From: an uncultured delta proteobacterium
GTDB taxonomy: Bacteria; Desulfobacterota; Binatia; UBA9968
DNA length: 64,000 nt
Assembly (NCBI GenBank): GCA_963804165.1
Contig: CAWDPO010000033.1
Span: 43,846-107,845 of the forward strand
Direction of reading: 5' to 3'
Shown: one piece after another, positions 6,363 to 45,781 of the stretch
How positions within the stretch are numbered: the stretch's first letter is position 1
How the letters are laid out: the number at the start of each line of letters is the position of its first letter
Position numbers and translations under genes: made by a program
The notes under the pieces: generated by a model
What the model was told of the DNA's origin: nothing
What the model saw: the letters and a program-made list of their open reading frames with translations, nothing else
Database searches by the model: none

Positions 6363-7499
6363 ATGAACATGTTCGTCGGGCATTTACTTGTCAGTTTCGC
6401 AATTTGCTTGGCTTTCGGCGTTGCGGCGGATGGTGCTGAGTCACCGCCGGCGTGGCAAACGGAGTGGGAGCGGACGGTCAAAGCGGCGGAAGCGGAAGGA
6501 CAGCTGACTGTTTATATGTCCGGCTATAGCTCGGTCATCGAAGCGGGGGTGTTTCAAAAGGCTTTTCCGAAGATCAAAGTCACCATCGTTCCGGGAACGG
6601 GCTCGCAGCTGGCGCCGCGAATCGTCGCCGAACGCCGCGGTGAAAAATTTCTCGCCGATGTCTACAACGGCGGCGGGACTTCGCTGTATCAGGTCCTCTA
6701 TTTGGGCAAGATGCTCGATCCGATACGGCCGGCGCTCATGCTTCCCGAGGTCACGGATACCTCGAAGTGGTGGGAAGGCAAACATAAATACGTCGATCGA
6801 GAAGGTAGCTACATGTTTGTCTACGAGGGCAACGTGTCGTCGGGCGGCTCGCCGGCTTACAATACCCAGCTGATCAGTCCAAAAGATTATCGATCCTATT
6901 GGGATTTTCTCAATCCCAAACTCAAGGGCAAGATCGGTTCAATCGATATTCGCAAAGTCCGTGGGATCGGACCCTCGATGCAGTATCTGTACTATCACCC
7001 GGAAATCGGCGTAGAATTTCTCCGCCGATTTTATCAGGAGATGGACGTCAGCATGAGTGGCGACTTTCGACAGGCTATGGACTGGCTGGCGGCCGGCAAG
7101 GTCGCAGTCCTCCTACCGATGCAGAGTTCAGGGACGGCGAAGGCGAAGGCGCAGGGATTGCCAGTGGATGAATTCGCTACAAATCAGTTCAAAGAGGGCG
7201 TGAACATTTCGTCCGCCTTCGGCCAGGTGGCGCTCATGAACCGGGCGCCGCATCCCAATGCCGCCAAAGTCTTCGTCAATTGGCTGCTGTCGCGCGAGGG
7301 CCAGGCCACGTTGCAAAAAACTATGAGCACGCCCGGCGATCCCAAGAACTCACGCCGCGTGGACGTTCCTAAGGATCACATTCCAACCGCGGAACGGCGC
7401 CGTGATGGCATGAAGTACTTTGACATCGACGACCGCGAAACCAAGGATATCAATCCGGCAATCAAGTTAATCGACGAGATTTTTGCCGGGACGAAATAG
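6363..7499 (+). CDS. AfuA/FbpA-fold extracellular solute-binding protein, paralog 1
   Basis: Signal peptide, WQTEWERTVKAAEAEG, AERRGEKFLADV, SYWDFLNPKLKGK and APHPNAAKVFVNWLLSREGQ. Confidence 0.85.
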   Translation: MNMFVGHLLVSFAICLAFGVAADGAESPPAWQTEWERTVKAAEAEGQLTVYMSGYSSVIEAGVFQKAFPKIKVTIVPGTGSQLAPRIVAERRGEKFLADVYNGGGTSLYQVLYLGKMLDPIRPALMLPEVTDTSKWWEGKHKYVDREGSYMFVYEGNVSSGGSPAYNTQLISPKDYRSYWDFLNPKLKGKIGSIDIRKVRGIGPSMQYLYYHPEIGVEFLRRFYQEMDVSMSGDFRQAMDWLAAGKVAVLLPMQSSGTAKAKAQGLPVDEFATNQFKEGVNISSAFGQVALMNRAPHPNAAKVFVNWLLSREGQATLQKTMSTPGDPKNSRRVDVPKDHIPTAERRRDGMKYFDIDDRETKDINPAIKLIDEIFAGTK

Positions 7500-7568
7500 C
7501 CGAGGATAGAGGATGGAGTATTAAGGATGGCATGAGTACCGGAGATAGCCATAGAAGAGGAGCGTAAA

Positions 7569-8738
7569 ATGTTGACCGCAGAAGAAAACGAAATGCTCAC
7601 AAGGGTCGGCCCGGGAACGCCGGCGGGCGAATTGCTGCGCCGTTATTGGCATCCTGTCGCGATTGCCGCCGACTTGACGCCGGAAAATCCGACTAAGTTC
7701 GTCCGTATCTTGGACGAGAATTTAGTATTGTTCGTGACGCCCAAAGGCGAGCCTGGCCTGCTCCACGATCGCTGTTCGCACCGTGGCGCCTCGTTGTCGT
7801 ATGGTCGTGTCGAAGAGCGGGGCCTCGCGTGCGCTTATCACGGCTGGCTTTATGACCCGAAAGGCAACTGTTTGGAAACGCCGGCGGAGCCTGCCGACAG
7901 TAAGTTTTGCCTCACCGTCAAACATAAAGCTTATCCGGTGCAAAAATTGGCCGGTCTGTATTGGGCCTATTTCGGACCTCAGCCCGCCCCGGTCATTCCG
8001 AAATATGATGTTTGGGCGCGTACCGACGGCTGGCACTGGCTGCGCGCACTGCCGCAGCTCGACTGCAACTGGTTGCAAGCGATGGAAAACTCCGTGGACA
8101 CGGCCCATCTGCACATCCTCCATCAGGAGCTGGTGACCGACGGTTTCAAGGTCGAGAGCACGACCCGCGGCACGATCGACAATCTGGTCAAGTATGAGAT
8201 GGAGGAGTTTACCCACGGCATTCTCAAGCGGCGGGTTTTCCGCGACGGCAAGGTGGAGGAACATCCGCTGCTTTTCCCCACGGTCTTGCGTCAAGCTAAC
8301 CGCACACAGATCCGCGTGCCGATCGATGATACCCATACTTGGATCGTCTACGTTCACTTTGTGCCCGATTCGGCCGAGCCGCGAGCGAACAAAGACGAAG
8401 TGCCGGTTAATTACCGCAAGCCTTTCAAAAATCCACTCGGTGCGCGCCATCCTTTTACCAAGTTCCGCCTTGATGAAGTCGACGCTCAGGATTTCATGGC
8501 ATGGGAAACACAGGGGCCGATTCTCGACCGCACGCGCGAAAGGCTGGCTGCGTCAGACCGCGGCGTGGTGATGTATCGCGAGATGCTGGCACGGGAGATT
8601 AAGAAAGTGCAGCAGGGAGTCGATCCAATGAACGTTTTTCGCGATCCCGATCACGCGATCATCGACACCCAAATGGAAAGCTCCCTGGAAGTCGGGAAGG
8701 CGGGATCGGTGCGCTACCACGTGCCGCCGGCACTATAG
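7569..8738 (+). CDS. Rieske oxygenase alpha subunit
   Basis: CSH...CAYH, ENSVDTAHLHILH and QDFMAWETQG. Confidence 0.92.
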   Translation: MLTAEENEMLTRVGPGTPAGELLRRYWHPVAIAADLTPENPTKFVRILDENLVLFVTPKGEPGLLHDRCSHRGASLSYGRVEERGLACAYHGWLYDPKGNCLETPAEPADSKFCLTVKHKAYPVQKLAGLYWAYFGPQPAPVIPKYDVWARTDGWHWLRALPQLDCNWLQAMENSVDTAHLHILHQELVTDGFKVESTTRGTIDNLVKYEMEEFTHGILKRRVFRDGKVEEHPLLFPTVLRQANRTQIRVPIDDTHTWIVYVHFVPDSAEPRANKDEVPVNYRKPFKNPLGARHPFTKFRLDEVDAQDFMAWETQGPILDRTRERLAASDRGVVMYREMLAREIKKVQQGVDPMNVFRDPDHAIIDTQMESSLEVGKAGSVRYHVPPAL

Positions 8739-8797
8739 AGGAAAACTAAGTTGCAGTCGTGGAAACCGTGCCTTCACCGTCGCTGCCAGGATAGATT

Positions 8798-9925
8798 GTG
8801 AAGCGATCGGGTCAATTCATTATCATTACATTGGTGCTCGGACTCATCGGAGTTGCCAATGCCGCCGAATCCCAACCCAATTGGCAACGCGAATGGGAGA
8901 AGGTCCTCGAAGGCGCGAAGCGGGAAGGCGAGGTGCGACTCTGGGGTGAACAAGAAATCACGCATCTCGACATCATTGCGGCATTTACCAAAGAATTTCC
9001 TTTCATCAAAGCCGTCAGCGTAAGCGGGCGGGTTGGGGATTTGATGCCGCGCATCGTCGCCGAGCGGCGTGCCGCGAAATTTCTGGCCGACATTTACAGC
9101 GGCGGTTTGGGCGGACGATCGTTTTTTGATTTCCACAAAGCCGGCGTGCTCGATCCACTCAAGCCGGTGTTGCTTCTTCCCGAAGTCGTCGACGGCTCGA
9201 AGTGGCTGAACGGCGAGCATTACTATGCCGACGGAGAAAAGCAGTTTGTCTTTATGTATGAGGGCAGCGTCGCTGGCGTTGGACTGCACTACAACACGGG
9301 TCTCGTCGATCCCAAGGAATTCAAGTCCTACTGGGATCTGCTCAATCCAAAGTGGAAGGGCAAGCTTCTGCTCTTCGAACGACCCGGGGTGGGCTCGCCG
9401 AGTGTGATTCGCTACTTTTACAACACGCAGCTGGGGCCGGATTTCGTCAAGCGCTTATTCAGCGAGATGGAGGTTACGGTTTCGCAGGACCGACGCCAAT
9501 CGAGCGACTGGTTGGCGTCAGGTAAATTTTCCATCTGCATCGACTGCGGCGACACCGACCGGGCAAAGCAGCAAGGATTGCCCGTCGATGAATTTCCCCA
9601 TGCGAACCTCAAAGAAGCGAGCTATGAAATCAGCACAAGCGGCAACAGCGGTTTGGCGCTCATCAACAATCCGCCGAATCCCAATGCGGCGCGGGCATTT
9701 ATCAACTGGTTTCTTTCGCGCAACGGCCAGACGGTGTGGCAGAGCGTCATGAACACCAAGGTGCAGGAGCCTTCCGATTCCATGCGCGTCGATATTCCCA
9801 AGGACAAAGTTGGCGCGCCGGCAAAGCGCGAAGAGGGCAAGAAATATCGCGTCAGCGGATTTCTCGATCCCGATCCGCCGACGAAATTGTTTAGAGAACT
9901 AGTGAGTAAAGAGAAGCGCAAATGA
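8798..9925 (+). CDS. AfuA/FbpA-fold solute-binding protein, paralog 2 (CIDC motif)
   Basis: Signal peptide, WQREWEKV, SYWDLLNPKWKGK and PPNPNAARAFINWFLS. Confidence 0.85.
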   Translation: MKRSGQFIIITLVLGLIGVANAAESQPNWQREWEKVLEGAKREGEVRLWGEQEITHLDIIAAFTKEFPFIKAVSVSGRVGDLMPRIVAERRAAKFLADIYSGGLGGRSFFDFHKAGVLDPLKPVLLLPEVVDGSKWLNGEHYYADGEKQFVFMYEGSVAGVGLHYNTGLVDPKEFKSYWDLLNPKWKGKLLLFERPGVGSPSVIRYFYNTQLGPDFVKRLFSEMEVTVSQDRRQSSDWLASGKFSICIDCGDTDRAKQQGLPVDEFPHANLKEASYEISTSGNSGLALINNPPNPNAARAFINWFLSRNGQTVWQSVMNTKVQEPSDSMRVDIPKDKVGAPAKREEGKKYRVSGFLDPDPPTKLFRELVSKEKRK

Positions 9926-10094: not shown

Positions 10095-11049
10095 ATGGCA
10101 GCGACGACTAACTACGAACCCATCGAGATCAACGCATACTTCCGTTCACATACACACCTGCCGCTTTGGGAGATACTCGACAAGGCTGGTTTCTGGAAAC
10201 AGGTCGCGATCAAGGTCAATTTTACGTACTGCGATAGTTCTTCCGAGGCAGAGGCGGGATTGTTTAGCGGGAAAATCGATTTGATTTCCGGTAACCATAT
10301 TTCGCCTTACGCGCTCGTCGCGCGCGGCAAGCCGATCGTCTCGTTGGCTTCGCCGACCAACGGTGTGACCGATCGCGTGGTGTCACGCGAGCCGATCAAG
10401 TCGCTGGCGGAAATCCGCGGCAAGCGCGTCGTCGACACGACGATTCTCGATAACGGTGGCGGCTATAATCACATCCGCGGCAACCATATGCTTTATATAC
10501 TGGAAGCCGGATTAGAGCTTAGCGACGTCAAATGGATCGAGATCACCGACAAAATGTCGAGCGAGTTTCGCGCCGCGCAATACGAAGCGATGAAAGCCGG
10601 CGAGGGTGATGTGACCTTGGTGACCGGAGATACAAAAAGATATGAGCAGGCTGGTTTTCACGTTCTACAATTACCGCGACTGCCGATGATCAACGGGCCG
10701 ACGCTCACAACTACCGTTACGGCGCTCAATAAGTACGATCGATTTGGCGAGCGGCTGGTGCTCGCGCAAGTGCTCGGCATTCACTTCGCGCGCACGCGTA
10801 GGGAAGAGACTGAAAAAATTCTCGAAGGATTGAAGAAACGCGAGCCCGAAGCGCGCGGCGTGTCGTACAACAGCGTGGCCAAGCTGGCGATAAAACCGTA
10901 CCCGGATCATTCAAGCGGTCGCCAACGCGTATCGGCTCTGCTGCATGAAGGCGCCGGAAGCGAATGAAATGAGTCCGCTGGCGATGTGGGATTTGCATTA
11001 CTTGCGCCAACTGGATCATTCCGGGTTTATCGATCGATTGTATGAGTGA
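10095..11049 (+). CDS. Signal-less NMT1/PBP2-fold protein with His motifs (frameshift near 10911)
   Basis: Collinear with the 23533-24474 paralog. The C-terminal AVANAYRLCC...WDLHYLRQLDHSGFIDRLYE continues in another frame to TGA 11049. Confidence 0.7.
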
Positions 11050-11220: not shown

Positions 11221-12347
11221 AACTGTTCACGGGAATTTCAGGCTTCCTTCTGGTTGCCTTTTGGGTTGCGACGGCCAACGCCGCGGAATCCAAACCCAAT
11301 TGGCAAACCGAATGGGAGCGGACGGTTAAGGCGGCCGAGGAGGAAGGGCAGTTGACGGTCTATGTCTCGGGCTACGGCGCGTTGATCGATTCCGGGATCT
11401 TCCAGAAGGCCTACCCGAAAATCAAAGTGACCAGTGTCACGGGCTCCGGCACTCAGCTCGCGCCGCGCATCGTCGCCGAGCGGCGCGGCGAAAAGTATCT
11501 TGCCGATGTTTACAGCGGTGGCGGCACTTCGCTCTATCAGAATCTTTACCTCGGCAAGATGCTCGATCCGATCAAGTCGGCGCTGATCTTGCCCGAAGTC
11601 GTCGATCCGTCGAAGTGGTGGGAGGGCAAACAAAAATACGTCGACCGCGAGGGGCGCTATATTTTTGTTTTCGAAGGCAACGTGGCGGCCGGTGCGAGTC
11701 CGGCGTACAACACCAATCTGATCAATCCCAAGGACTACAAGTCGCTATGGGACTTTTTGAATCCCAAGTTGAAAGGCAAGATCGTTTCCCCTGACATTCG
11801 CAAAGTGCGCGGTTCCGGTTTATCGGTGCAGTATCTTTACTATCACAAGGACCTTGGACCTGAGTTCATTCGGCGTTTTTACGGAGAAATGGACGTGACT
11901 TTGACCGCCGACGTGCGCCAGGCGGTGGATTGGCTCGCGGTGGGCAAGTTTGCGCTGTCGATGCCGACGCAGAGTTCTTACACCGCCAAAGCCAAGGCGC
12001 AGGGATTACCGGTGGACGAATTCGATCCGCATCATATGAAAGAGGGCGCCAGCCTCGCCGTGGCGTTCGGCCAACTCGCGCTCATGAACCGCGCGCCTCA
12101 TCCCAACGCGGCCAAGGTGTTTGTCAATTGGTTGCTTTCGCGCGAAGGGCAAAGCGCCTTCCAACGCGTCATCAGCACACCGGGAGACGCGAAAAATTCG
12201 CGGCGTATCGACGTGCCGAAGGATCACATTCCGACGTCCGAACGGCGCGGCGAAGGCGTCAAGTATTTTGACGCTGACGACCCGGATACCAAGGATATTA
12301 CGCCGGCGATGAAATTAATGGACGAAATCTTTGCCGGGAAGAAGTGA
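11207..12347 (+). CDS. AfuA/FbpA-fold solute-binding protein, paralog 3 (close to paralog 1; start codon out of frame by one base)
   Basis: The in-frame signal peptide KLFTGISGFLLVAFWVATANA-AESKPNWQTEW lies upstream of TTG 11352. GGAGG-ATG at 11207 is shifted by one base in a G/A run. Confidence 0.8.
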
Positions 12348-12352
12348 CGGCT

Positions 12353-13501
12353 ATGAGTCGAGGATTTATGAATCTTCTTACGCGAGCCTTCAGCCTTCTC
12401 GTCGTTACCTTCTGGACTAGCGCGTCTTACGCCGCCGAAGCCAAACCCAATTGGCAAGCCGAATGGGAGCGGACGGTGCAGGCGGCGAAAAAGGAAGGCT
12501 CGCTGTCGCTCTATCTTTTCCAGGGCGAGGGCGAGCTTAGCGCTGTGGCGCAGCTGTTCCAGAAAAAGTATCCCGAGATCAACGTGGCGGTGACCCCGGG
12601 GCGGGGTAACACGTTTGCGCCCAAGATCATGGCAGAGCGGCGCGCAGGCAAGTATCTCGTCGATGCTTATATCGCCGGGGCGACGACTGCCTATGAAGTT
12701 CTTTATCGCGCGAAAATCTTGGACAGTGTGCGCGCGACGCTGATCCTGCCCGAGGTCATCGATGAGTCCAAATGGTGGCTCGGGCAGCATCACTACATCG
12801 ATCCCGAGAGTCGATATATCTTCGTCTATTTGGGCAACGTCGGCGAGTATGTGTCCTACCATACCAAGTCACTGGACGCGGGTGAGATTCGTTCCTATTG
12901 GGATTTTCTCCAGCCTAAGTGGAAAGGAAAAATTCTCTCACGTGATCCGAAGATTTCCGGCAGCCAGCGCATTGGTCTTCGAGGATTTTATCATACACCG
13001 GAGCTGGGCGCCGAGTTCATTCGCCGTCTTTACGGCGAGATGGATGTGACGCTGACTCAAGAAATCCGTCAAGCAACCGATTGGCTAGCGCACGGGAAAT
13101 TCGCCATCTGCTTTTTTTGCTCTGAGATTCTGAAAGTCAAGGCACAAGGGCTTCCCGTGGATGAATTTCGCACGGCGCAATGGAAAGAGAGCCGGGTGAT
13201 TTCCGCGGGCAACATGGGTTCTATAGCTCTGCCGAGCCAGCCGCCTCACCCGAACGCCGCGCGCGTATTCGTCAATTGGTTGCTCTCACGCGAAGGCCAA
13301 ATGGCGCTCCAGCGCACGACCAATACGCCGTACAATTCCGAGGAATCGCTGCGCACCGATGTCCCCAAGGACGTGGTGCGGAGCGAAGTACGCCGCATCG
13401 ACGGCGTGAAGTATTTGCTGGTGGATAAGCCGGAATATATCGACATGGCGCCGATCTATGACATCGTCGAAAAAGCATTGGTGCAGGCGAAAAAGAAGTA
13501 G
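12353..13501 (+). CDS. AfuA/FbpA-fold solute-binding protein, paralog 4 (CFFC)
   Basis: Signal peptide, WQAEWERTVQAAKKEG and PPHPNAARVFVNWLLSREGQ. Confidence 0.85.
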   Translation: MSRGFMNLLTRAFSLLVVTFWTSASYAAEAKPNWQAEWERTVQAAKKEGSLSLYLFQGEGELSAVAQLFQKKYPEINVAVTPGRGNTFAPKIMAERRAGKYLVDAYIAGATTAYEVLYRAKILDSVRATLILPEVIDESKWWLGQHHYIDPESRYIFVYLGNVGEYVSYHTKSLDAGEIRSYWDFLQPKWKGKILSRDPKISGSQRIGLRGFYHTPELGAEFIRRLYGEMDVTLTQEIRQATDWLAHGKFAICFFCSEILKVKAQGLPVDEFRTAQWKESRVISAGNMGSIALPSQPPHPNAARVFVNWLLSREGQMALQRTTNTPYNSEESLRTDVPKDVVRSEVRRIDGVKYLLVDKPEYIDMAPIYDIVEKALVQAKKK

Positions 13502-13610: not shown

Positions 13611-14738
13611 GTGGGTAGATCGACGGCGAATTTTTGGGACAACAAGACGGCCTATGAATACTGGATCGAATCGACCGGCGCGCCGATTCATCGCGGTTAT
13701 TACATCGAAGACTGCCGCACGTTGGAGCTTGGCTATTGGGCGGAGCGTGAGTGCGACGCGGCGTTTATTCAGCTCGTCGGTCAGGAAGGTGTGACCGGCG
13801 CTTACGTCACGGAGATTCCACCGGGAAAGACCTTGCCGTCGTTTCGCGTCGCGGTGGACGAGGTTGTTTACGTCTTAAAAGGCCGTGGCGTGGCGAGCAT
13901 CTGGGCCGGCGAGCGCGCCAAGAAGATCTTTGAATGGCAAAGCCACGCGATGTTTTTGATTCCGGGCAACTACCATTGCCAGTTGAGCAACATGCAAGGC
14001 GACCAATCGGTGAAGCTGTTGCATTGCAGCTACTTGCCGCTGGCGATGTCGGTGCTGCCCGATCCGGACTATTTCTTCAACAATCCGCTGGTCGATTACA
14101 ATTTGCTTTACGGGCAAGGATCGCGCGAGGTTTACTCCGAAGCTAAAGTCGTGACGCTGAACGAGCCCGGCACCGCGCGTGACGGGCGAAACATCTGGTT
14201 CGGCAATTTCTTTGCCGATATGAGGGCGTGGGACCGGCTCGATCATTTCGAGCGGCGCGGCGCCGGCGGCCACGTCGTGTGGGTGGGATTTCCCAGCTCG
14301 CCGATCTCTGCCCATATGTCGGTCTTTCCCGCGCGCACCTACAAGAAAGCCCATCGCCATGGCCCCGGCTATCTGATCGTTATCCCCGCCGGTGAGGGCT
14401 ACTCGATCATGTGGCCGGAGGGCGGCGAGAAAATTATCATCCCGTGGCACGAAGCGAGTTTGTTCGTGCCGCCCAATCGTTGGTTTCATCAGCACTTCAA
14501 CATCGGCGGCGCGCCGGCGCGTTATCTGGCGATTCATCCGCCGCGGGGGCTCAACGGCATTAGCGAGAAAGTCGAAGACCGCGCGCGCGATCAGATCGAG
14601 TATACCGACGAGGACCCGATGATTCGCGAGAAATTCGAGTCCGAGCTGTCGCGCAAAGGATTGGAATCGGTGATGCCGGATGAGGCGTACCGAAATCGTG
14701 ACTACGAGTGGAGCTACACGCAGAAAAAAGCGAGCTAA
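13611..14738 (+). CDS. Bicupin protein
   Basis: The C-domain carries YKKAHRHGPG...WFHQHFN. The N-domain is homologous to the other cupins but lacks the His ligands. Confidence 0.8.
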   Translation: MGRSTANFWDNKTAYEYWIESTGAPIHRGYYIEDCRTLELGYWAERECDAAFIQLVGQEGVTGAYVTEIPPGKTLPSFRVAVDEVVYVLKGRGVASIWAGERAKKIFEWQSHAMFLIPGNYHCQLSNMQGDQSVKLLHCSYLPLAMSVLPDPDYFFNNPLVDYNLLYGQGSREVYSEAKVVTLNEPGTARDGRNIWFGNFFADMRAWDRLDHFERRGAGGHVVWVGFPSSPISAHMSVFPARTYKKAHRHGPGYLIVIPAGEGYSIMWPEGGEKIIIPWHEASLFVPPNRWFHQHFNIGGAPARYLAIHPPRGLNGISEKVEDRARDQIEYTDEDPMIREKFESELSRKGLESVMPDEAYRNRDYEWSYTQKKAS

Positions 14739-34949: not shown

Positions 34950-35086
34950 ATAGTGAATAAGGGACTTTTAACCACGAGTGATTCATGACCTCACGCTCGC
35001 CCACAGAGAATGAAAATGGAGGGATGAGCTAGCCCGGGTTTGACGGACACCAAGAAAAGGGTCAAAAGCCCTGAAGGAGGTGTTCG

Positions 35087-36243: not shown

Positions 36244-36303
36244 CTGTCCGTTAAACCGGGGGCACCTCAGGATGTCCCTCCACGTGATGCTCTCTCTTCG
36301 ATC

Positions 36304-37417: not shown

Positions 37418-37581
37418 ACCCAGGCAGCCTCTATTCGTTCTCATTTTCGAACAGGTATTTTCAAAGGAGGTCACGAAAAACACGAACTTTGATTCGATAA
37501 GTGTCGAACCCCTTCGTGTCCTTCGCGCTCTTCGTGGTGAAGATGAAGTTCCTCGATTGAGATCTCATGGAGAAATGACCT

Positions 37582-38829
37582 ATGCTGAGCCGTGAAGAAA
37601 ACGAGCTGCTGACTAAAGTCGGGCGTGGCACGCCGATGGGCGAATTGCTGCGCCGCTACTGGTATCCGATCGCTGCGTGCTCTGAACTCATTGAGAAACC
37701 AACTAAGGGTGTGCGGGTGCTCGGCGAAGACTTGGTGCTCTATCGCGACAAGCAGGGGCGGCCGGGTCTCATCGGCTCGCAGTGCGCGCACCGGCGCATG
37801 GCGTTGGTTCTGGGGATTCCGGAAAAGGACGGCTTGCGCTGTCCCTACCATGGCTGGCTGTACGATCGAAACGGTAAATGCCTCGAACAGCCTTATGAAC
37901 AGGCCGAGGATCCCGAAAGTACGTTTAAGGATCGCATCCGCATGCCGGCGTATCCGGTCGAGGAGCTAGGCGGTCTGATTTTCGCCTACCTCGGCCCGCA
38001 GCCCGCGCCGCTATTGCCGCGCTGGGAATTGTTCGTGCGCGACGGTGTACTGCGTGATATCGGCGCGGCGGTGATCCCGTGTAATTGGCTGCAGATCATG
38101 GAGAACTCCCTCGACCCGGTGCATGTCGAATGGCTGCATCAGCATTTTTTCAACTACGTGCAAGAACGGCTCGGGCGCACGGATTTCAAAGGCGAGCCGG
38201 TGCGCCACAAAAAGATCAACTTCAGAGAGTTCGAGCATGGCATCATCAAGACTCGGATGCTGGAAGGCGAGAGCGAAGACAACGAAGACTGGCAGGTGGG
38301 GCACCCGGTGCTGTTTCCGAATATTCTCCTGAGCGGGAGCACGAGCCGACCGACTTTTCAGATCCGCGTGCCGCTCGATGACACGCACACGCTGCACCTC
38401 TGGTACACTTGCTATCCGCGCGGCGATGCCAAGGGGCCGCAGGAAGTGATTCCGTTTTACAACGTGCCGGTGCCGGGCGTCGACGCCGCCGGCGAGCCAC
38501 AGTGGTCGCTGCTCGACAACAACAGCGGCGAAGACATGATCGCGTGGATTACCCAGGGCGGAGTCGCGGATCGGACGCAAGAATCGCTGGGTCTTTCCGA
38601 CAAAGGCATCATTCTCTACCGTCGCCAGCTCAAGGAGCAGCTGGAAAAAGTTCAGGCCGGGCAAGACCCGATCAACGTTCTTCGCGATCCGGCAAACAAT
38701 GTGAATATCAAGGTCCGTCTTGAAGACAGCAAGCTCAACAGCGGCAGTTTTCGCTCCGGCCCGCGCCGCCAGGGCGGTGCAACGAAATATAGTCCGATTC
38801 TTAATGAAGAGGAGCGGACGAGAAAATGA
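37582..38829 (+). CDS. Rieske oxygenase alpha subunit
   Basis: CAH...CPYH, ENSLDPVHVEWLH and EDMIAWITQG. Confidence 0.92.
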   Translation: MLSREENELLTKVGRGTPMGELLRRYWYPIAACSELIEKPTKGVRVLGEDLVLYRDKQGRPGLIGSQCAHRRMALVLGIPEKDGLRCPYHGWLYDRNGKCLEQPYEQAEDPESTFKDRIRMPAYPVEELGGLIFAYLGPQPAPLLPRWELFVRDGVLRDIGAAVIPCNWLQIMENSLDPVHVEWLHQHFFNYVQERLGRTDFKGEPVRHKKINFREFEHGIIKTRMLEGESEDNEDWQVGHPVLFPNILLSGSTSRPTFQIRVPLDDTHTLHLWYTCYPRGDAKGPQEVIPFYNVPVPGVDAAGEPQWSLLDNNSGEDMIAWITQGGVADRTQESLGLSDKGIILYRRQLKEQLEKVQAGQDPINVLRDPANNVNIKVRLEDSKLNSGSFRSGPRRQGGATKYSPILNEEERTRK

Positions 38830-38983
38830 ACGTTCAAAACGTTCAGGCCGTTCAACCGCTCCGCGGAGCCTGTCCTGAGCAAAGCCGAAGGGTTCAAATC
38901 CCCTCCTTCGTCCTCCCCCGCGTCGCAGGGGAGGAAAGAGGTGGGGGCTTGAGCGATTTGAACGGCTTGAACTACTTGAACGG
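38829..38983. repeat. Composite repeat: inverted 9-mer arrays (CGTTCAARN) enclosing two REP-like units
   Basis: cgttcaaaa cgttcaggc cgttcaacc ... gagcctgtcctgagcaaagccgaagg ... cctcccccgcgtcgcaggggagg ... ttgagcga tttgaacgg cttgaacta cttgaacgg. Confidence 0.7.
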
Positions 38984-39008
38984 AATTGATGTCTGGAGGT
39001 AGCGACAG

Positions 39009-40185
39009 ATGGCTTTGGTTAAAATCGGCCTCGTCGGTCTCGGCACAGCGGGAAGATCGCTGCCGCAAGCGATCGCCAAGACGACGGGATTCTCCTTCGT
39101 CGCGGGAGCCGACCTTCGAGAAGAGGCGCGCGCGCAGTACCGCGCCGAGTTTGGCATTCAGACCTTCGACAGCGTCGAGTCGATGTGCGAGCTCAAAGAG
39201 CTGGACGCCGTCTACGTCGCCACGCCGAATCCCTATCACGCCGAACATGCCCTCACGGCCCTGGAACACGGCAAGCATGTGATGGCCGAGAAGCCGATGG
39301 CATTGACTCTGGAAGATTGCGACCGGATGATTGCAGCGGCGGAAAGAAATCACGTCAAGCTCATGGTCGCGCATACGCGCAGTTTCAATCCGCCGATCCG
39401 CAAGATGCGCGAGATTATCAGCAGTGGCAAGCTTGGGCGGGTAACCCAAGTTCATACGCTACGATATTCGCCCTGGCTGTTGCGGCCGCGCGAGCCGGTG
39501 GAAATTAATACTGAGTTCGGCGGCGGCGTTTGCTACCGTCAGGCGCCGCACCAGGTCGATATCGCTCGTCTATTGGGCGGCGGCATGGTGCGCAGCGTGC
39601 GCGCCCACGCGGGCCGCTGGTCGGCAGAAAATTCTACGGAAGGAAACTATTCCGCGCTCTTGGATTTCGACGGCGGTGTGACCGCAACTTTGATCTATGA
39701 CGGCTATGGCTATTTTGACGATCGCGAGTTGATTGAGGGCGACGTATTTGGCGGGGACGATCAACTTGGGCCCGGCCAGAGATTGAGAAAAGCACGCGCC
39801 GAAGGAAGGCTTAACAAAGATACCAGCCGCTCGGGCGTCAGCTTTTGACATCGAGCGCGGCGACGGCGATGGCGAGCAGGCAGGCCGCGCCAGCCGTTTT
39901 TCGGCATTACGCTTAGTCAGTTGCGAGCGCGGCGCGCTGCGGCAGTCTGCGGACGGGGTTTTCATTTACGACGAGCACGGCAGAACTGAAGTGCCATGTC
40001 CGGACTGGAGTGGTCCGCTCAAGGTGGAACTGGAAGATTTTTACCAAGCCGTGACCACTGGCGGGAGCGTCCCCCATGACGGGAAATGGGGCAAGGCGAC
40101 TCTGGAGGTTTGCCTGGCGATACTTCAGTCGAATGAGCACAAGCGCGAACAACTGGTCACCCATCAGGTGCCGAGCCCGTACTGA
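39009..40185 (+). CDS. Gfo/Idh/MocA oxidoreductase, OphB-like (frameshifts at about 39845-39915)
   Basis: IGLVGLG, VYVATPNPYH, EKPMA and GGGVCYRQAPHQVD. The C-terminal HDGKWGKATLEVCLAIL lies in a downstream frame. Confidence 0.83.
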
Positions 40186-40276
40186 CCGGTGGATCGTAAG
40201 ATCTGTTGCTGTTTTTTAGTCTTGAACTTCACACAGCGACGCGATAGAAACTCGCTGGCTTATAGAGGGATTCAAT

Positions 40277-42014
40277 ATGGCTAAAACCGAGACACTGAGC
40301 CCTGTATCCGTCAGCCGTTCTTGGCTCCCCCCGATGGACGGCGGCACGGCGCTCATGGCCGTGCTGATCGGCTTTATGGGCTTCTACGTGCTCTACCCAT
40401 TGACCCTGATTGTCGTCAACAGTTTCAACACCGCGACGATCGCCGAACCGCCGGTCTACGGCCTCAAGGCCTGGCGCGAAGCATTCAGCGAGTATGGGAT
40501 CTGGCGCTCGCTGTGGAACAGCGTGAAGATCGGCATCGTGCTGCAAGTCGATCGCGCTACCGCTGGGAATTTTCATTTCTTGGTTGCTCGCGCGCACCAA
40601 TATCTTCTGCGCCAACGCGTTGGAGTTCGGCTTTTGGATTTCTTTCTTTCTGCCGGGGTTGGCGACCACGTTTGGTTGGATGCTGATGCTCGATCCGAGC
40701 ACCGGATTGATAAACTCGTGGTTGCGTCAGATACCGTTTTTAAGCGGGCTTAATTTCGACATTTACACCTTCGCGGGGATTATCTGGGTTCATTTGGTTA
40801 GCAACGGTATTTCCACCAAAGTGATGTTGATGACGCCGGCGTTCCGCCGCATGGACGCATCGATGGAAGAAGCGAGCCGGATGTCCGGCGCCAGCGCGCT
40901 CACGACGATGTTGCGAATCACCGTTCCAGCGATGACTCCGGTGATCGTTGTTGTTTTCTTACTCAGCGTGATCCGCATCTTCAGCAGCTTCGAGATCGAG
41001 CTGTTGCTCGGCGTGCCGTGGAGTTTTTATGTGTACTCGACAAAAATTGTCGATCTCGCGAGGCAGGAACCGCCGTTGGTGAATCAAGCGGCGGCGCTGG
41101 GGAGCATCATTCTGCTCTTTCTCGCCGCTTTTATTCCCCTCCAGCGCAGATTAATCACGCGCCGGCAATTCACGACCGTCACGGGGCAATTCAAACCGAA
41201 GATCATCGATCTTGGCGTGTGGCGTTACCCGGCGACGGCCTTTGTTGCTTTGGTTATTTTCGTCCTGGACGTTGTGCCGCTCTTGAGTGTCTTGGGCGGC
41301 AGCTTCATGACTCGGTTCGGCTTTTTCAATCTGCCGAAAACATGGACGCTGGAGTACTGGAGGATGGCGTTTAGCGATCCGCGTATTCTCCATGGCTTGC
41401 ATAATACGCTGATCGTCGCGGTCAGCGCCGGACTAGTCGGCGCTCTGGTTTTCTCTTTGATTGGTTACGTTCTGGTGCGGACCAAACTTCCCGGCCGCTC
41501 ATTGCTCGATACTATTTGCTGGCTGCCGTCGGCGATCCCCGGCGTGTTGGCCGGGCTTGGCTTATTGTGGATGTTTCTTGGCACGCCGTTTTTCCGGCCG
41601 TTTTACGGCACAATTTTTCTCCTGGTCATCGCTCAGGTTCTCGGCGGCATCACGCTGTCGACCCAAATACTCAAAGCTAATTTCGTCCAATTCGGAAAAG
41701 AGCTGGAGGAATCATCGCGCATGTCGGGCGCGGGCTTTTGGCGCACCTATTTTCGCATCGTGTTTCCGCTGATGGCGCAAACGATGGTGTTGGTGGGCGT
41801 GATTAAATTCATGTTCGCCGCGCAGCACAATTCGGCGATCATTCTTCTCGCGACTTCGGAAACCAGAACTTTGTCGCTGCTCGCCCTTGATCAGGTGGCG
41901 GCGGGATACCGCGAAGTCGCGAGCATTACCATCATCATGGTGACGTTACTCACGCTCGGGTTGGCCATCGTCGCGCGATCGTTCGGTCTTAAAGTCGGCA
42001 TTCGAGCGGATTGA
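40277..42014 (+). CDS. ABC transporter permease, FbpB/ThiP-type with two MetI-like domains (frameshift near 40549)
   Basis: Two EAA loops (MDASMEEASRMSGAS and GKELEESSRMSGAG) and multiple TM helices. Confidence 0.88.
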
Positions 42015-42107
42015 CGACAACTCGAAGAAGAAAATTGAAAGATTGGCCAATCCTCGGTCCTCGGTAGTAATTGAGGCATTTTCAGCGGTACGGCAAGGAT
42101 AGATCAC

Positions 42108-43223
42108 GTGAGCTTTTTACGCATTGAAAATCTCTACAAAACCTTCGACCGAGTGGTGGCGGTTAATCGCATCAATCTCGAGATCAAAGAAGGCGAGTTC
42201 TTTACCCTGCTCGGCTCCAGCGGTTGCGGCAAAACGACGACGCTGCGCATGGTCGGCGGACTGGAAAAACCCGACGGCGGCGCGATTTATCTTGCCGACC
42301 GTTGTCTGGTTTCCGACGCGCAAAAACTGTTCGTCAAACCGGAAAAGCGCGACATGGGCATGGTGTTTCAATCCTACGCGCTGTGGCCGCATATGACGGT
42401 CTATGAGAACGTCTCGTATCCGCTCAAACTTCGCGGCATGAAAGGCGCCGAAGCCAGCAACAAAGTCGCCAATGTTTTGGCGCTCGTCGGTCTTTCCGGA
42501 CTGGAAGAGCGGCCGGCGCCGGCACTGAGTGGCGGGCAACAGCAGCGAGTCGCGCTCGCCCGGGCGCTGGTATTTTCGCCCAAGGTCTTGTTGCTCGACG
42601 AACCGTTGAGCAATCTCGACGCCCAATTGCGCGAAGAAATGCGTCGCGAGCTCAAGGCCCTGCAGCAGCGGATCAACGTCACAGTGATATTCGTCACCCA
42701 CGACCAGATCGAAGCGCTGAGCCTATCCGATCGAATCGCGATTATGAAATTCGGCGTGCTCGAACAGGTCGGAACCCCGGAGGAGGTTTACTATACACCG
42801 GCGACGCCGTTCGTGCGTGACTTTTTGGGTAAGACGTTTCTTCTTTCTGGAAAGGTGGTTGGCGTTTCCGATCAGCACGTGCAAGTCGAAGTCCAAGGAG
42901 TCGGCGCATCTTCGCTCACGCTGCAACGGAATAATGTGATTTCATCCGCCAACGGATTCCCCACCATCGGCCAGTCCGCGATGGTCGCCATCCGGCCTGA
43001 AAAAATGATTCTCTCGGATCGCGGCTGTGAGGGACAGGGCAACGTCGTCGAAGGAACTTTGCAAGCGACGCAATTCCTCGGCGATCGTTACGAGTACACC
43101 GTGACTCTCGGCTCAGAAACCCGGGTGATCGTGTCGCCGGAAGCCAAGCTCCTCAAGCAGGGCGGCAAAGTTTTTCTCGAGCTCAAGCCCGAGGGCGTCA
43201 CTCTCTGGCCGCGCGAACCGTAA
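42108..43223 (+). CDS. ABC transporter ATPase, FbpC/PotA-type with C-terminal TOBE domain
   Basis: Walker A GSSGCGKTT, VFQSYALWPHMTV, LSGGQQQRVALARAL, LLLDEPLSNLD and FVTHDQ. Confidence 0.95.
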   Translation: MSFLRIENLYKTFDRVVAVNRINLEIKEGEFFTLLGSSGCGKTTTLRMVGGLEKPDGGAIYLADRCLVSDAQKLFVKPEKRDMGMVFQSYALWPHMTVYENVSYPLKLRGMKGAEASNKVANVLALVGLSGLEERPAPALSGGQQQRVALARALVFSPKVLLLDEPLSNLDAQLREEMRRELKALQQRINVTVIFVTHDQIEALSLSDRIAIMKFGVLEQVGTPEEVYYTPATPFVRDFLGKTFLLSGKVVGVSDQHVQVEVQGVGASSLTLQRNNVISSANGFPTIGQSAMVAIRPEKMILSDRGCEGQGNVVEGTLQATQFLGDRYEYTVTLGSETRVIVSPEAKLLKQGGKVFLELKPEGVTLWPREP

Positions 43224-43230
43224 TTCGAAC

Positions 43231-43275
43231 CGTTCAAGCCGTTCAAATCGTTCAAACAGTTCAAGCCGTTCGAAA
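43231..43275 (+). repeat. Five-copy 9-mer tandem array
   Basis: cgttcaagc cgttcaaat cgttcaaac agttcaagc cgttcgaaa. Confidence 0.8.
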
Positions 43276-43297
43276 ATTACAGTAAAAGGTTGCCATC

Positions 43298-44432
43298 ATG
43301 GCGATGTTGGTCATGCAACGCTTTCCCTGCGCGGTAGTTGGCGCATGGCTTTGTTTGTTTGCTAGCTCGTACCTATCCGCTGCCGAAACGAAAATCGATG
43401 CGGAGTGGTCGGGCACAGTTGCGGCTGCCAGGAAAGAGGGCAAAGTCAGCGTTTTTCTTTACCAGCGGGAGAACATCGAGGCGGCGGTTAAAGCCTTCGA
43501 GAAAAAATTTCCCGATATTCAGGTCATCACAGCGAGTACGTCCGCGGCGGAGACGGGACCGCGCCTGATGGCGGAACGGCGCGCCGGCAAGTTTCTCTGG
43601 GATGTTTGTTTGTGCGGACCGACGACTCCGTTCGTAGCGCTTTACCCGGCCAAAGCTTTGGATCCGATCAAGCCGGCGTTGCTGCTGCCGGAAGTGACCG
43701 ACGCGACGAAATGGTGGGAAGGCAAGCATCAATATATGGATCCGGAAGGAAGCCATATCTTCGTATTTCATCGGCAGCGTCGATATGCCCAATCTCTTCT
43801 ATAGTAAAAATGGAGTCGACCCCAACGAATTCAAATCCTACTGGGACGTGATCAAAGCAAAATGGCGCGGCAAAATCGTCGCCGTGGACCCGCGCCAGCC
43901 CGGCCGGCCGCGGGTCGGCACACGCGTCCTTTACAATATTCCCGATCTCGGAGAAAAATTTTTGACCCGGCTGTTCTTGGAAATGGACATTGTCCTTAGC
44001 CGCGATGACCGCCAAGCGCTGGACTGGCTCGCGGTGGGAAAGTACGCGCTCTGTTTATTTTGCGGCAATATCGAAGCGGCGCGAGCGCAGGGTTTGCCCG
44101 TCGAGGAGTTTGAAACCTATCGCTGGAAAGAGACTCCGGCGATCTCCTCGGGCAGCAACGGTTCGATCGCGCTGATGAATCAGGCGCCGCATCCCAATGC
44201 CGCGCGGGTGTTTATTAATTGGCTATTATCGCGCGACGGCCAGGTCTCGTTTCAAAAGATCATGAATTCCGCCGACCTGTTGGTGGAATCGATGCGCGTC
44301 GATATCGCCAAAGATCCCATTCCCATGCCGCAGCGACGAGTGGGGGGAGTGAAGTACATCATCATGGATACTGCGGAGCGAAGCAATCAAGAGCCGGTGA
44401 ATAAGCTGTTGAAAGAGATCATCAAGAAATGA
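43298..44432 (+). CDS. AfuA/FbpA-fold solute-binding protein, paralog 12 (CLFC; frameshift near 43768)
   Basis: ORFs 43298-43804 and 43785-44432 are the N- and C-terminal halves of the family. Confidence 0.82.
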
Positions 44433-44518
44433 TCGACGCAGAGACCAAGTTCTTAGTGAGATGGGGACGTATCGTTCGCACCCAGATAGTCCTCTCCCCT
44501 CGAGCGGCTGTGCGCTGA

Positions 44519-44602
44519 TGTCATTCTGAGCGTAAGCGAAGAATCTCGCTTTTCCTGCTGTCGACGAAGGCGAGATCCTTCGCCTATTGGCTCAGGATGA
44601 CA
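44519..44602. repeat. REP family A doublet (in a degenerate copy of the 32299 composite)
   Basis: tgtcattctgagcgtaagcgaagaatctc ... gagatccttcgcctattggctcaggatgaca. Confidence 0.85.
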
Positions 44603-44656
44603 TCTATCTATGGAGTCTTGGGGTTGCGACAGAGACTTCCGTGGTGAGAAAAACAT

Positions 44657-45781
44657 ATGATCACGCGTATTCTGATTATTCCTCTTTTTGCTCTCTTGGG
44701 TTCGGTCTCCGCGGCGCCTGCCGCCCAGTTAAGTGTCGCTGCTGCCGCATGGCAAACCGAGTGGGAGCGCACGGTCAAAGCGGCGGAGCAGGAGGGCGAA
44801 GTCTCCTATTACACGGTCGGTGAGTTTAACTTTCTGACCGAGTTCGAAAAGAAATTCCCGCGCATCAAAATCAAAGTCGTGCAGGGTAGAGGCAACGAGC
44901 TGCTGGTGCGCATCATGACCGAGCGACGCGCCGGGAAATACCTCGCCGACGTGGCGCGCATCGGCAACACTTCGCCTTACGCGCTGTATCAGGCTAAAAC
45001 GCTGCAGCCCATCGCCGGCGCATTCATTTTGCCGGAAGTCAAAGACGAGTCGAAATGGTGGTCGGGGAAACATCAATACGTCGATGCCGAAGGCAGATAC
45101 ATCTTCGTTCCGGTCGGCAGCGTCTCGGTGAATATGGTCGCGCACAACAGCGAGCTGGTGGCGCCGGCGGAACTCAGCTCGTTTTGGGATCTCTTGCAGG
45201 AGCGATGGCGCGGCAAGATCGTCGTCATCGACCCGCGCGCCAGCGGCTACGGCAGGAGCGGTGCGCGCACGGCTTACTATCATCCGCAACTGGGCGAAGA
45301 GTTTTTGCGCCGGTTATTTAGTCAACAAGTCGTGATGATATCGCGGGATTACCGCCAGGCGATCGATTGGGTGGCGCAGCGGCGCTTTTCGATCCTGCTA
45401 TTCGGCAACGGCGACGATGTCCTGCAGGCGAAAGCGCGGGGCTTGCCGGTCGACGTCTTCGATAACGCTTCCTGGAAAGAGGGAGGCGCGTTGGAACCGG
45501 GCGCGTTCACATTTGCATGGTTGGATCGATCACCGCACCCCAATGCGGCCAAGGTTTTCATCAACTGGCTGCTCTCACGCGATGGGCAAATGGCGGTTCA
45601 GCGCGATGGGCAGATTCACGACTCGCTGCGCGTGGATATTCCAAAAAACGAGCTGCGCCCGATGGCCCGACGCAAAGAAGGAGCGAAATATATGGTGACA
45701 TGGAAGGCGGAGTGGATGGACGCCGAGCCCATGCAAAAAGTAGTGAGCCAGGCGCTGGCAAAGAGTGCCAAGAAGCCATAA
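44657..45781 (+). CDS. AfuA/FbpA-fold solute-binding protein, paralog 13
   Basis: WQTEWERTVKAAEQEG, GNTSPY (as in paralog 11) and SPHPNAAKVFINWLLSRDGQ. Confidence 0.85.
   Translation: MITRILIIPLFALLGSVSAAPAAQLSVAAAAWQTEWERTVKAAEQEGEVSYYTVGEFNFLTEFEKKFPRIKIKVVQGRGNELLVRIMTERRAGKYLADVARIGNTSPYALYQAKTLQPIAGAFILPEVKDESKWWSGKHQYVDAEGRYIFVPVGSVSVNMVAHNSELVAPAELSSFWDLLQERWRGKIVVIDPRASGYGRSGARTAYYHPQLGEEFLRRLFSQQVVMISRDYRQAIDWVAQRRFSILLFGNGDDVLQAKARGLPVDVFDNASWKEGGALEPGAFTFAWLDRSPHPNAAKVFINWLLSRDGQMAVQRDGQIHDSLRVDIPKNELRPMARRKEGAKYMVTWKAEWMDAEPMQKVVSQALAKSAKKP

Follow-up and report, generated by a model that had tools for sequence, protein, structure and literature searches.

A stretch of 64,000 nucleotides from an uncultured delta proteobacterium of the Binatia (contig CAWDPO010000033.1; this whole stretch is called the window) carries a long array of genes for substrate-binding proteins (SBPs) of the FbpA/MctA-like family, interleaved with genes for catabolic enzymes. 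Our favored explanation, held with moderate confidence, is that the array consists of cassettes of a substrate-specific receptor and an enzyme, and that these cassettes share a few ATP-binding cassette (ABC) translocators, probably for the uptake of aromatic acids and not of iron. A cassette would comprise one exported SBP of a distinct and old type and one or two cytoplasmic enzymes for aromatic carboxylic acids: Rieske oxygenases of the phthalate family, bicupins, UbiD decarboxylases, or NMT1-like proteins of the cytoplasm. In the periplasm, each SBP would bind an organic anion of its own and pass it on to an FbpB-type permease and an FbpC-type ATPase that all SBP types share and whose genes occur only once, at the far end of the array; the neighboring enzyme would then convert what has been imported. 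A few paralogous translocators elsewhere possibly take part.

Thirteen SBP copies were identified on the plus strand between 6363 and 45781 by tblastn with copy c05 (14751-15908) as the query (40-70% identity, E <= 6e-82). A repeat search found a 13-copy direct-repeat family (D3) in register with the SBP genes, which confirms the count at the DNA level, and the 13 co-directional paralogs reported in a preliminary description of this DNA are thus borne out. Genes from 7 to 47057 lie nearly all on the plus strand with spacings of -52 to 423 nt according to the open reading frame (ORF) listing and Pfam, and the sole exception on the minus strand is a broken IS30-like remnant. In the alignment of the 13 copies most pairs were 37-51% identical (total range 37-74%), and the closest pairs were c01/c03 (74%), c05/c06 (67%), and c02/c08 (51%). 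The copies, and a fourteenth, divergent one, are as follows.

6363-7499, plus strand: SBP c01 (the ORF opens with TTG at 6336, ATG at 6363); Pfam SBP_bac_1/8/11/6, tblastn 49% to c05; followed by a Rieske gene at 7569-8738
8798-9925, plus strand: SBP c02, sister of c08; tblastn 45% to c05; followed by an NMT1-like gene at 10095-10967
11235-12347, plus strand: SBP c03, start region broken; tblastn
12344-13501, plus strand: SBP c04; Pfam; followed by a bicupin gene at 13611-14738
14751-15908, plus strand: SBP c05, the copy used for the structure model; Pfam
16030-17172, plus strand: SBP c06, 67% identical to c05; Pfam; followed by a UbiD decarboxylase gene
18741-19907, plus strand: SBP c07; Pfam and tblastn
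22014-23264, plus strand: SBP c08, whose likelier start is the Met at 22173 directly ahead of the hydrophobic signal segment; Pfam; followed by an NMT1-like gene at 23533-24474
24642-25745, plus strand: SBP c09, broken; tblastn; followed by a Rieske gene at 25850-27016 and bicupin genes at 27233-28336 and 28526-29629
29691-30800, plus strand: SBP c10; Pfam; followed by a Rieske gene at 30926-32137 and a 3-hydroxyisobutyrate-dehydrogenase-like gene at 32561-33436
33774-34949, plus strand: SBP c11; Pfam; split from its usual Rieske partner (37582-38829) by two insertion sequences
43298-44432, plus strand: SBP c12, with one frameshift; tblastn
44657-45781, plus strand: SBP c13; Pfam and tblastn; followed by a Rieske gene at 45819-47057
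59797-60831, minus strand: divergent SBP, 21-25% identical to the 13 (24% to c05 by tblastn); Pfam SBP_bac_6, 9e-19

Ten of the 13 copies (11 of the 14 ORFs scanned) matched Pfam SBP_bac_1/6/8/11 at E <= 1e-5. The match of c02 was weak (SBP_bac_6, 2.6e-4), and so was that of the C-terminal piece of c12 (about 5e-5, just below the Pfam cut-offs), while its N-terminal piece had no match to the Pfam SBP models. Read by eye, the N-termini of the intact copies are basic and then hydrophobic with an Ala-rich end ahead of a conserved WxxEW, and therefore indicate that the copies carry an export signal and are located in the periplasm. An AlphaFold model of c05, built from a 25-row alignment, had a two-lobed fold (predicted local distance difference test, pLDDT, 88.7; predicted template-modeling score, pTM, 0.82). 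These signal sequences and the model agree with the periplasmic receptors of the preliminary description. The scaffold motifs that it quoted (WxxEW..AA..EG, AERRxxKxxAD, SYWDxLxPKWKGK, PHPNAAKVFxNWxLS, and SxRxDxPKD) are all present in the alignment, and so are the loops GGTSLY, GLGGRSF, GATTAY, GVTTFQ, GANPNY, GMTTGY, GPNGPR, GNTSPY, and GPTTPF. The paralogs diverge throughout, however, and not only in these short loops. The divergent copy that it had added at 59797 does exist, but it belongs to a separate subfamily on the opposite strand, in another gene context, and is not part of the array.

The array has been conserved among related metagenome-assembled genomes (MAGs), and the locus itself is Binatia-like. 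The best 120 matches to c05 were 74-92% identical, and the named ones were proteins from Candidatus Binatia or Deltaproteobacteria MAGs; Binatia is a class of Candidatus Binatota. A scan of species-representative genomes gave at least 634 matching stretches, 611 of them confirmed, and 71 related loci (denoted by L numbers), which amount to 983,963 bp and come mostly from Binatia MAGs. In the closest relative (L001) the order was UbiD, Rieske, c01, GFO, Rieske_7569, c02, c03, c04, cupin, c05, c06, UbiD, and c07, at 81-99% identity. At least two SBPs were present in 48 of the 71 loci and at least five in 15, with a maximum of ten in a 21-kb locus. Single-linkage clustering at 65% identity gave 15 SBP orthologue groups of at least three members. 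Two of the loci (L007 and L032) overlap on one contig, and duplicates make up only two of the 191 aligned SBP sequences, 180 of which come from the loci. Averaged over 340 positions of the mature proteins, 0.88 of the members of a group carried its commonest residue. From these alignments, the SBP types are old and individually conserved, each with its own orthologues.

SBP genes outnumber permease genes both in the window and in its relatives. One set of translocator genes is present in the window.

40277-42014, plus strand: fused two-domain ABC permease of the FbpB/PhnU2 type; Pfam BPD_transp_1; frame broken, orthologues intact at 578 aa
42108-43223, plus strand: ABC ATPase of the FbpC/PotA type with a TOBE_2 domain; Pfam, NCBIfam, and tblastn

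No other ABC permease or ATPase gene was found in the window by Pfam or by tblastn at E <= 1e-3, in keeping with the one FbpB-type permease and one FbpC-type ATPase described previously. The permease scored 99 bits with the NCBIfam model PhnU2, whose cut-off is 593. Both genes lie within the same co-directional array as the SBPs, and the same linkage was seen in five of the related loci (L011, L032, L037, L041, and L069). An orthologous permease (79-93% identity) was found in L011, L013, L032, L037, and L041, each time 3' of SBP and enzyme genes, and the SBP sets ahead of it differ among these loci. In L069, which comes from an Alphaproteobacteria MAG, five tandem SBPs stand directly ahead of a permease and an ATPase that are 63% and 59% identical to those of the window. 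By tblastn, the 71 loci contained 207 SBP genes, 11 permease genes (>= 30% identity), and eight ATPase genes (>= 45%), together with 68 Rieske, 34 cupin, 31 UbiD, 29 NMT1-like, and 25 GFO genes. A permease homolog of any kind was present in 15 of the loci, and one of at least 60% identity in six. The 26 loci of at least 20 kb had 93 SBP genes versus 10 permease ORFs.

The SBP genes are adjacent to enzyme genes, and these adjacencies are conserved in the related loci. The usual partners in the window are the following.

7569-8738, plus strand: Rieske/LigXa_C oxygenase, usual partner downstream of the c01/c03 type; Pfam and phthalate-dioxygenase-family structures
10095-10967, plus strand: NMT1/THI5-like protein without a signal peptide, partner of c02; Pfam NMT1, 7.8e-5, and N-terminus
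13611-14738, plus strand: bicupin-like protein, partner of c04; 28-34% to the Pfam-positive cupins at 1038, 27233, and 28526, own Cupin_2 match weak
23533-24474, plus strand: NMT1-like protein without a signal peptide, partner of c08; Pfam and N-terminus
37582-38829, plus strand: Rieske oxygenase, usual partner of c11; Pfam

Rieske_7569 (enzyme genes are named here by their start position) followed c03 in nine of 11 orthologues and c01 in two of three. The cupin at 13611 followed c04 in nine of 14, c06 followed c05 in 15 of 21, and UbiD followed c06 in six of 22, with six more at a contig end or gap. NMT1_23533 followed c08 in all five orthologues and NMT1_10095 followed c02 in three of four; a Rieske gene came after c10 in three of three, and Rieske_37582 after c11 in three of five. 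The order c09, Rieske, bicupin, bicupin is shared with L043 and other related loci. Around 206 SBP genes in the related loci there are about 412 neighbor slots (a total derived by rule), which were taken by 144 SBP, 67 Rieske, 30 NMT1-like (one on the opposite strand), 22 cupin, 22 UbiD, 14 GFO, nine ABC_sub_bind, and two permease genes; the rest were 61 unlabeled ORFs, 32 locus ends, seven genes more than 1 kb away, and four others with labels. Pfam scanning of 48 of the 57 distinct unlabeled ORFs identified, among others, Amidohydro_2, cupins, alpha/beta-hydrolases, molybdenum hydroxylases, and Exo_endo_phos (three each), and no permease was among these 48.

Some of the pairs also appear to share their history in trees of the genes of the window. 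The sisters c02 and c08 (support 0.92) have NMT1 partners that are 57% identical to each other and at most 33% identical to other NMT1-like genes. Together with c11 and c10, c13 forms another group (support 0.99), and Rieske_45819 and Rieske_37582 are sisters (support 1.00), as are Rieske_7569 and Rieske_25850 (support 0.89). The tree position of Rieske_30926 does not track that of its SBP, c10. This pattern suggests that some SBP-enzyme pairs were duplicated as units. The preliminary description spoke of combinatorial uptake, but the genes are arranged in cassettes, in which an enzyme type goes with a single type of SBP, and there is no mix-and-match. The NMT1-like proteins at 10095-10967 and 23533-24474 might act in the cytoplasm on the compound that is imported, either as enzymes with an SBP fold or as its carriers. 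A sequence search for solved relatives of cupin_13611 and NMT1_10095 found none at E <= 0.001.

The enzymes beside the SBPs bear on what is transported. Rieske_7569 matched structures of the phthalate-dioxygenase family (7fjl, 2.3e-52; 7fhr, 'putative phthalate 4,5-dioxygenase', 3.9e-52), and UbiD_2212 matched UbiD decarboxylases of aromatic acids (7pda, 5.5e-112; 7ae4, 'phenolic acid decarboxylase', 4.4e-50). The nearby Rieske, UbiD, cupin, Amidohydro_2, and molybdenum hydroxylase genes point to aromatic and perhaps heteroaromatic carboxylates, and from gene context the SBP ligands are probably such carboxylates and not iron. The aromatic-acid substrates proposed in the preliminary description fit this catabolic neighborhood.

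Public annotation often calls the matches of c05 'iron(III) transport system substrate-binding protein'. If this were correct, the SBPs would bind ferric iron or a metal chelate, and the array would be an iron-acquisition locus. Besides the names, the FbpB/FbpC-like permease and ATPase and the nearest solved folds, among them FbpA, FutA, and MctA, are in line with such a role. In a Foldseek search of the PDB with the c05 model, MctA, the metal-citrate SBP of an ABC transporter, ranked first (E 2.9e-17, TM-scores 0.63/0.70, 18% identity), and the probability was 1.00 for MctA, FutA1, FbpA, and AfuA, with TM-scores of 0.5-0.7. Sequence and profile searches agree with Foldseek (family profile versus MctA, E 8.6e-18). 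However, c05 is only 16-20% identical to any solved iron binder (17-20% to the FbpA structures), and no SBP reached an NCBIfam equivalog for iron or anything else, the best being PhnS2 with 48.6 bits versus a cut-off of 392.75. Further solved folds near c05 are FutA1, VcA0625 and AfuA (sugar phosphates), IbpS, STM0429 (annotated as 2-aminoethylphosphonate-binding), P5PA (pyridoxal phosphate, PLP), and FbpA. The same fold cluster thus holds binders of citrate, sugar phosphates, and PLP and an annotated 2-aminoethylphosphonate binder, and the structural neighborhood, as judged from these matches, appears to bind organic anions as often as iron. Moreover, the genes beside the SBPs are for Rieske oxygenases, cupins, and UbiD decarboxylases and not for siderophores or iron, and 13 diverged types for a single ion would lack an explanation. 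An iron function is therefore very improbable. The ferric ligands of FbpA are a His, a Glu, and a Tyr-Tyr pair, and the PDB titles of FbpA mutants name H9, Y195, and Y196. The only conserved Tyr-Tyr/His pair of the SBPs (Y218-Y219 of c05) aligns to positions 177-178 of the MctA chain, away from the mutated ligand sites.

The family is large and diverse, and no curated model covers it. Against 1.84 billion representatives at 50% identity, c05 matched 834 clusters at E <= 1e-30 and 2871 at 1e-10, and look-alikes of c05 and NMT1_10095 in the ESM Atlas were SBP/NMT1 clusters, whose commonest recorded phylum was Candidatus Binatota. AAxxEG and HPNAAKxFxxxLLSxxGQ align identically in MctA despite its 18% identity. 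As two of the 'scaffold' motifs are in common with MctA, they are signatures of the superfamily fold and not evidence of a common, permease-specific dock such as the constant docking surface that the preliminary description proposed. A block at about residues 127-156 of c05 (15129-15218 in the window), present at the same place in all copies, is mostly conserved across the 15 groups and has no counterpart when the family is aligned to MctA. Seven of its residues are invariant (L136, P137, E138, V139, D141, W145, and D154), and it is a candidate for a family-specific surface or hinge element.

The receptor types differ most where a ligand would be bound. Between-group entropy averaged 1.47 bits over the 340 positions, 47 of which were invariant across all 15 groups. 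The ligand-site mutants of MctA (S26, D28, S79, S164, T199, and Y221) were taken from PDB entry titles only; S79, D28, and Y221 were fixed by the printed mutant sequences (chain index = residue number + 2), and the other three by the same numbering. These sites map to S64/G65, G114, P207, Y243, and V263 of c05, and G114 is inside the variable loop of the preliminary description. Mean entropy at the six mapped positions was 2.66 versus 1.47 bits, a value reached by 36 of 100,000 random sextets (p = 0.00036). In the periplasmic-binding-protein fold, the C-terminal ends of strands and the N-termini of helices line the cleft between the lobes. For the 13 modeled beta-strands, the five residues after the strand averaged 1.96 bits versus 1.25 for the five before (n = 65 each, one-sided Mann-Whitney p = 3.5e-5), and for the six beta-alpha-beta strands the values were 1.96 and 0.76 bits (p = 9e-7). 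Since the C-terminal strand ends are the more variable, the variation in the model is polarized towards the binding cleft. The variable pockets claimed in the preliminary description are thus supported, both at the mapped MctA positions and at the cleft-facing strand ends, and the types might differ in specificity accordingly. R244-Q245 of c05, adjoining the variable position 243, are almost invariant and might hold on to a chemical group that the ligands have in common, for instance a carboxylate.

Docking was modeled for one SBP. For c05 (residues 37-385) paired with the intact permease of L032, the predicted complex had an ipSAE interface score of 0.46 (runs 0.47, 0.35, and 0.46), versus 0.00 for the best of three controls. 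The runs had at least 85% contact agreement and partner pLDDT of at least 84. Of the 157 solved complexes in the calibration, 116 passed the mark, as did two of 215 mismatched pairs, counts that hold only roughly here, where own alignments were used; scores that reached the mark at ipSAE <= 0.60 came from only 18 of the 157 solved complexes and from both passing mismatches. The model thus gives weak support to docking of c05 on this permease. SBP-permease complexes of other ABC importers have been solved, and because of this the pass may reflect likeness to them.

Several points weigh against a shared local translocator with receptor-enzyme cassettes. First, 'one importer', as the preliminary description had it, is true within the window, but the arrays of relatives hold two further, distant FbpB-type permeases: one of 41-45% identity heads other SBP-enzyme arrays (L035 and L036), and one of 28-36% identity was found in L003, L009, L012, L017, L020, L049, and L068. 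The latter, which has 574 aa in L003, L017, and L049, adjoins distant relatives (26-28% identity) of the 59797 protein there. Therefore, 'one importer' may be several. Second, the excess of SBP genes is inflated because the 71 loci were chosen for holding an SBP, and without the index SBPs a fairer ratio is 136 SBPs versus 11 permeases. Third, a local permease is likewise lacking for two other SBP families of the window (ABC_sub_bind at 19929-22017, and NMT1-like proteins with signal peptides at 52721 and 57725), which means that SBP genes of this genome need no permease nearby and that the FbpA-like copies could use distant partners as well. Fourth, the mapping of the MctA sites relies on a profile alignment at 18% identity, good to about one residue. 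Fifth, inherited synteny among related genomes could yield part of the SBP-enzyme adjacency signal; it explains the duplication pattern less easily. Finally, the only permease of the window is frameshifted and three SBP copies are broken, and should the breaks be real, the system encoded here would not be functional as written.

From the first and third of these points it might be argued that most of the SBPs are true transport receptors for other permeases elsewhere, and that only c12 and c13, whose genes adjoin those of the permease and ATPase, serve the local importer. Orphan SBPs away from transporter genes are indeed described as common in the excerpted text of PMC3223731, and relatives hold at least two further types of FbpB-type permease in or beside such arrays. 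On the other hand, the 93 SBP genes versus 10 permease ORFs in the longer loci, the orthologous permease that closes arrays of differing SBP content in five loci, and the five SBPs before one permease in L069 are against it, and so is the predicted c05-permease complex, which passes weakly. We consider distant partners for most of the copies unlikely.

Another possibility is that the SBPs are mainly periplasmic sensors for regulators or chemoreceptors and deliver no substrate. In favor of this, the title of one solved relative (6lkg) names a two-component signaling protein. Among the 55 ORFs of at least 150 aa scanned over the whole window, none had a transcription-factor domain, which is unusual for a 64-kb catabolic region and leaves its regulation unexplained; the only helix-turn-helix matches, in small ORFs scanned separately, were transposases. 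However, neither in the window nor among the labeled or scanned neighbors in the 71 loci was a histidine kinase, chemoreceptor, or regulator found beside the SBPs, except for one MerR. The five longest of 150 listed family representatives contained no signaling domain either (one, the distant member P0254 of 887 aa, begins with a PKD domain, which the SBP domain follows), and the matching permease and ATPase lie in the array. A sensory role is thus improbable, and delivery to a translocator remains the explanation that we prefer.

At least nine single-base breaks or stops are present in the 64 kb: three in c09, and others in c12, the permease, the UbiD, GFO, and thiamine pyrophosphate (TPP) enzyme genes, and near the start of c03. 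In c03 there is no in-frame ATG, GTG, or TTG ahead of the signal peptide, and an out-of-frame ATG lies just upstream in a tract of G/A runs. c09 has a TAG at 24711-24713 at the position of a conserved Trp, a +1 shift near 24837, and a -1 shift near 25012, and comparison with four orthologues consistently shows both indels. A single frameshift interrupts c12 near 43785-43804. In the permease, one extra A at 40545-40546 is the sole gap in a 1690-nt alignment (83% identity) to the intact orthologue of L011; intact orthologues of 578 aa are also present in L032 and L041. The other broken genes are as follows.

17214-18697, plus strand: UbiD-family decarboxylase, split into two ORFs; Pfam; 1-nt deletion near 18290 relative to L001, L006, L007, and L013
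39009-40185, plus strand: GFO/IDH/MocA oxidoreductase, split; Pfam and ORFs
60900-62580, minus strand: TPP enzyme, split by a single-base break

These breaks, with the two insertion sequences, might mean that the array is decaying here, with redundant duplicates, a dead transporter, and no present function. But ten of the SBP ORFs are intact, the paralogs are old (37-51% identity), and the commonest residue among orthologues is held by 0.88 of members, as noted above. Downstream of its single break, the permease protein is 92% identical to intact orthologues, and because downstream frames stay conserved in this way, we lean towards assembly error. In L001, the closest relative, the same UbiD gene is broken at other positions, which fits assembly error better than shared decay. 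Decay of the array is thus highly improbable. Two other origins of the breaks were tried and rejected. A homopolymer origin does not suit the permease break, which is in an AA dinucleotide, or the other sites, which have no long runs; only the start region of c03 is run-rich. Reassignment of the stop codon was dismissed for the TAG of c09, a single case at a Trp that is encoded by TGG in the other copies shown.

Two insertion sequences interrupt the array.

35087-36243, plus strand: IS3-family element; Pfam HTH_Tnp_1, rve, and HTH_38 across both insertion sequences
36341-37313, minus strand: IS30-like remnant in three ORFs; Pfam and ORFs

They sit between c11 and Rieske_37582, which are adjacent in L008, L032, and L043, and the insertion at 35087-37313 may be polar on the downstream Rieske, GFO, permease, and ATPase genes. 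The GFO-permease-ATPase block is flanked by spacers with tandem 9-nt repeats of the unit TTCAAGCCG (38842-38983 and 43224-43273), partly in opposite orientation. There are seven matches versus 0.2 expected by chance, and the motif was also found in five of the 71 related loci. Between the UbiD gene and c07 (18690-18746) is another tandem repeat, the 8-nt TGGAGTGA with 7.2 copies. No shared intergenic regulatory motif was seen among the 20 largest of 53 direct-repeat families, which were all families of coding sequences. From 30000 to 49000 there were nine promoter-like sites versus 8.9 expected, a chance level, and 36 terminator-like sites, mostly intragenic, versus 23.5 expected.

The permease-less SBPs of other families are of two kinds. 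Two ABC_sub_bind (PF04392) proteins with signal peptides are encoded inside the array on the plus strand (19929-20987 and 21034-22017), with no permease of the same family in the window. A second small cluster on the plus strand (51902-58738) has a class II aldolase, three NMT1-like SBP genes, a Rieske gene at 54469, and a glyoxalase-fold dioxygenase gene at 56669, and no permease. The SBP genes at 52721 and 57725 encode clear signal peptides, and the third is at 55795. NMT1/SsuA-like SBPs are used by the TauT family. The phthalate ABC system OphFGH is classed in this family in the excerpted text of PMC3223731.

ABC importers with several SBPs are already known, such as HisJ/LAO with HisQMP2 and the OppA paralogs in Borrelia. 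A review by Thomas (Mol Microbiol 75:6, 2010) reportedly covers orphan SBPs and ABC importers of this kind. Like them, the array in the window has more SBP genes than translocators, and a single SBP family with apparently differing specificities would dock on one permease-ATPase. Unlike HisJ/LAO-type systems, it has 13 SBPs in one array, and up to ten per 21-kb locus in relatives. The SBP types here are 37-51% identical and not close pairs, and every one of them is linked to the gene of a catabolic enzyme. The SBPs are also FbpA/MctA-like with a fused FbpB-type permease, and their docking is a prediction. In sequence and fold, the best match is MctA of Thermus thermophilus (7f6e and its mutants) and the FbpA/FutA/AfuA/P5PA cluster, with which the SBPs have AAxxEG and HPNAAKxFxxxLLSxxGQ in common. 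FbpBC consists of a fused permease and a TOBE-type ATPase, and the partners here are likewise of these types. The SBPs are only 16-20% identical to MctA and this cluster, have a block at about residues 127-156 of c05 that does not align to MctA, and vary among types in the residues at the MctA ligand positions.

Orphan SBP genes are a common occurrence according to the excerpts of PMC3223731, which cites Thomas 2010. The aromatic-acid SBPs of Rhodopseudomonas palustris and the OphFGH system (PMC3223731, in the same excerpts) are similar to the SBPs here in being ABC SBPs near aromatic-degradation genes, with the ligand class taken from genome context. In contrast to the SBPs here, they belong to branched-chain-amino-acid-like or TauT/NMT1-like clusters and are mostly single with their own transporter operon, as far as these excerpts go. 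In mode of working, the closest analog is the Bug SBPs (the TctC family) and their tripartite tricarboxylate transporters (TTT). In the excerpts of PMC5812351 and PMC8556258, Bordetella pertussis has 76-79 Bug SBP genes versus two tctAB sets, and tphC is inside the terephthalate dioxygenase operon while tpiBA is elsewhere. Judged against these excerpts, the array resembles Bug/TctC and TphC-TpiBA in the excess of SBPs over membrane components, in an SBP gene beside an aromatic-acid dioxygenase gene (tphC with tphA), and in carboxylate ligands, which are predicted here, and it differs from the Bug/TTT systems, which are secondary transporters, in being an ATP-driven ABC system with an unrelated SBP family, a translocator inside the array, and cassette-wise pairing with enzymes. 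The SBPs are not Bug/TctC proteins, since by Pfam they belong to SBP families of the ABC type and have a permease-ATPase of that type as their local partner; the likeness is functional only. Several SBPs per ABC transporter and orphan SBPs are known already. No literature on such SBP arrays in Binatia/Binatota was found in the library that was searched.

On a wider scale, and tentatively, with somewhat less than even confidence, we propose that Binatia and some neighbors with the same family may hold an ABC-based counterpart of the Bug/TTT expansions, in which hundreds of FbpA-like receptor types, each hard-wired by adjacency to a ring-modifying enzyme, belong to cassettes that duplicate and diverge as units and are plugged into very few shared FbpBC-type translocators. 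On this wider proposal, the substrate range of a cell would be set by its library of cassettes and not by whole transporter operons, and the family would supply ready-made binder-enzyme pairs for aromatic acids derived from lignin or humic matter, in a soil phylum that is still uncultured. If the explanation that we favor is true, it would add an ATP-driven, FbpA-like example to the orphan SBPs, a principle whose best documentation comes from TTT systems, and a family of 834 clusters (at 50% identity) would be relieved of the widespread label 'iron(III) transport system substrate-binding protein'. The paired genes might also guide substrate discovery, as the ligand of an SBP would predict the substrate of the adjacent oxygenase, cupin, decarboxylase, or NMT1-like protein. 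For the organisms themselves, it would mean that an abundant uncultured soil lineage could take up many related aromatic acids cheaply and that a new substrate needs only a new receptor-enzyme cassette and not a new transporter.

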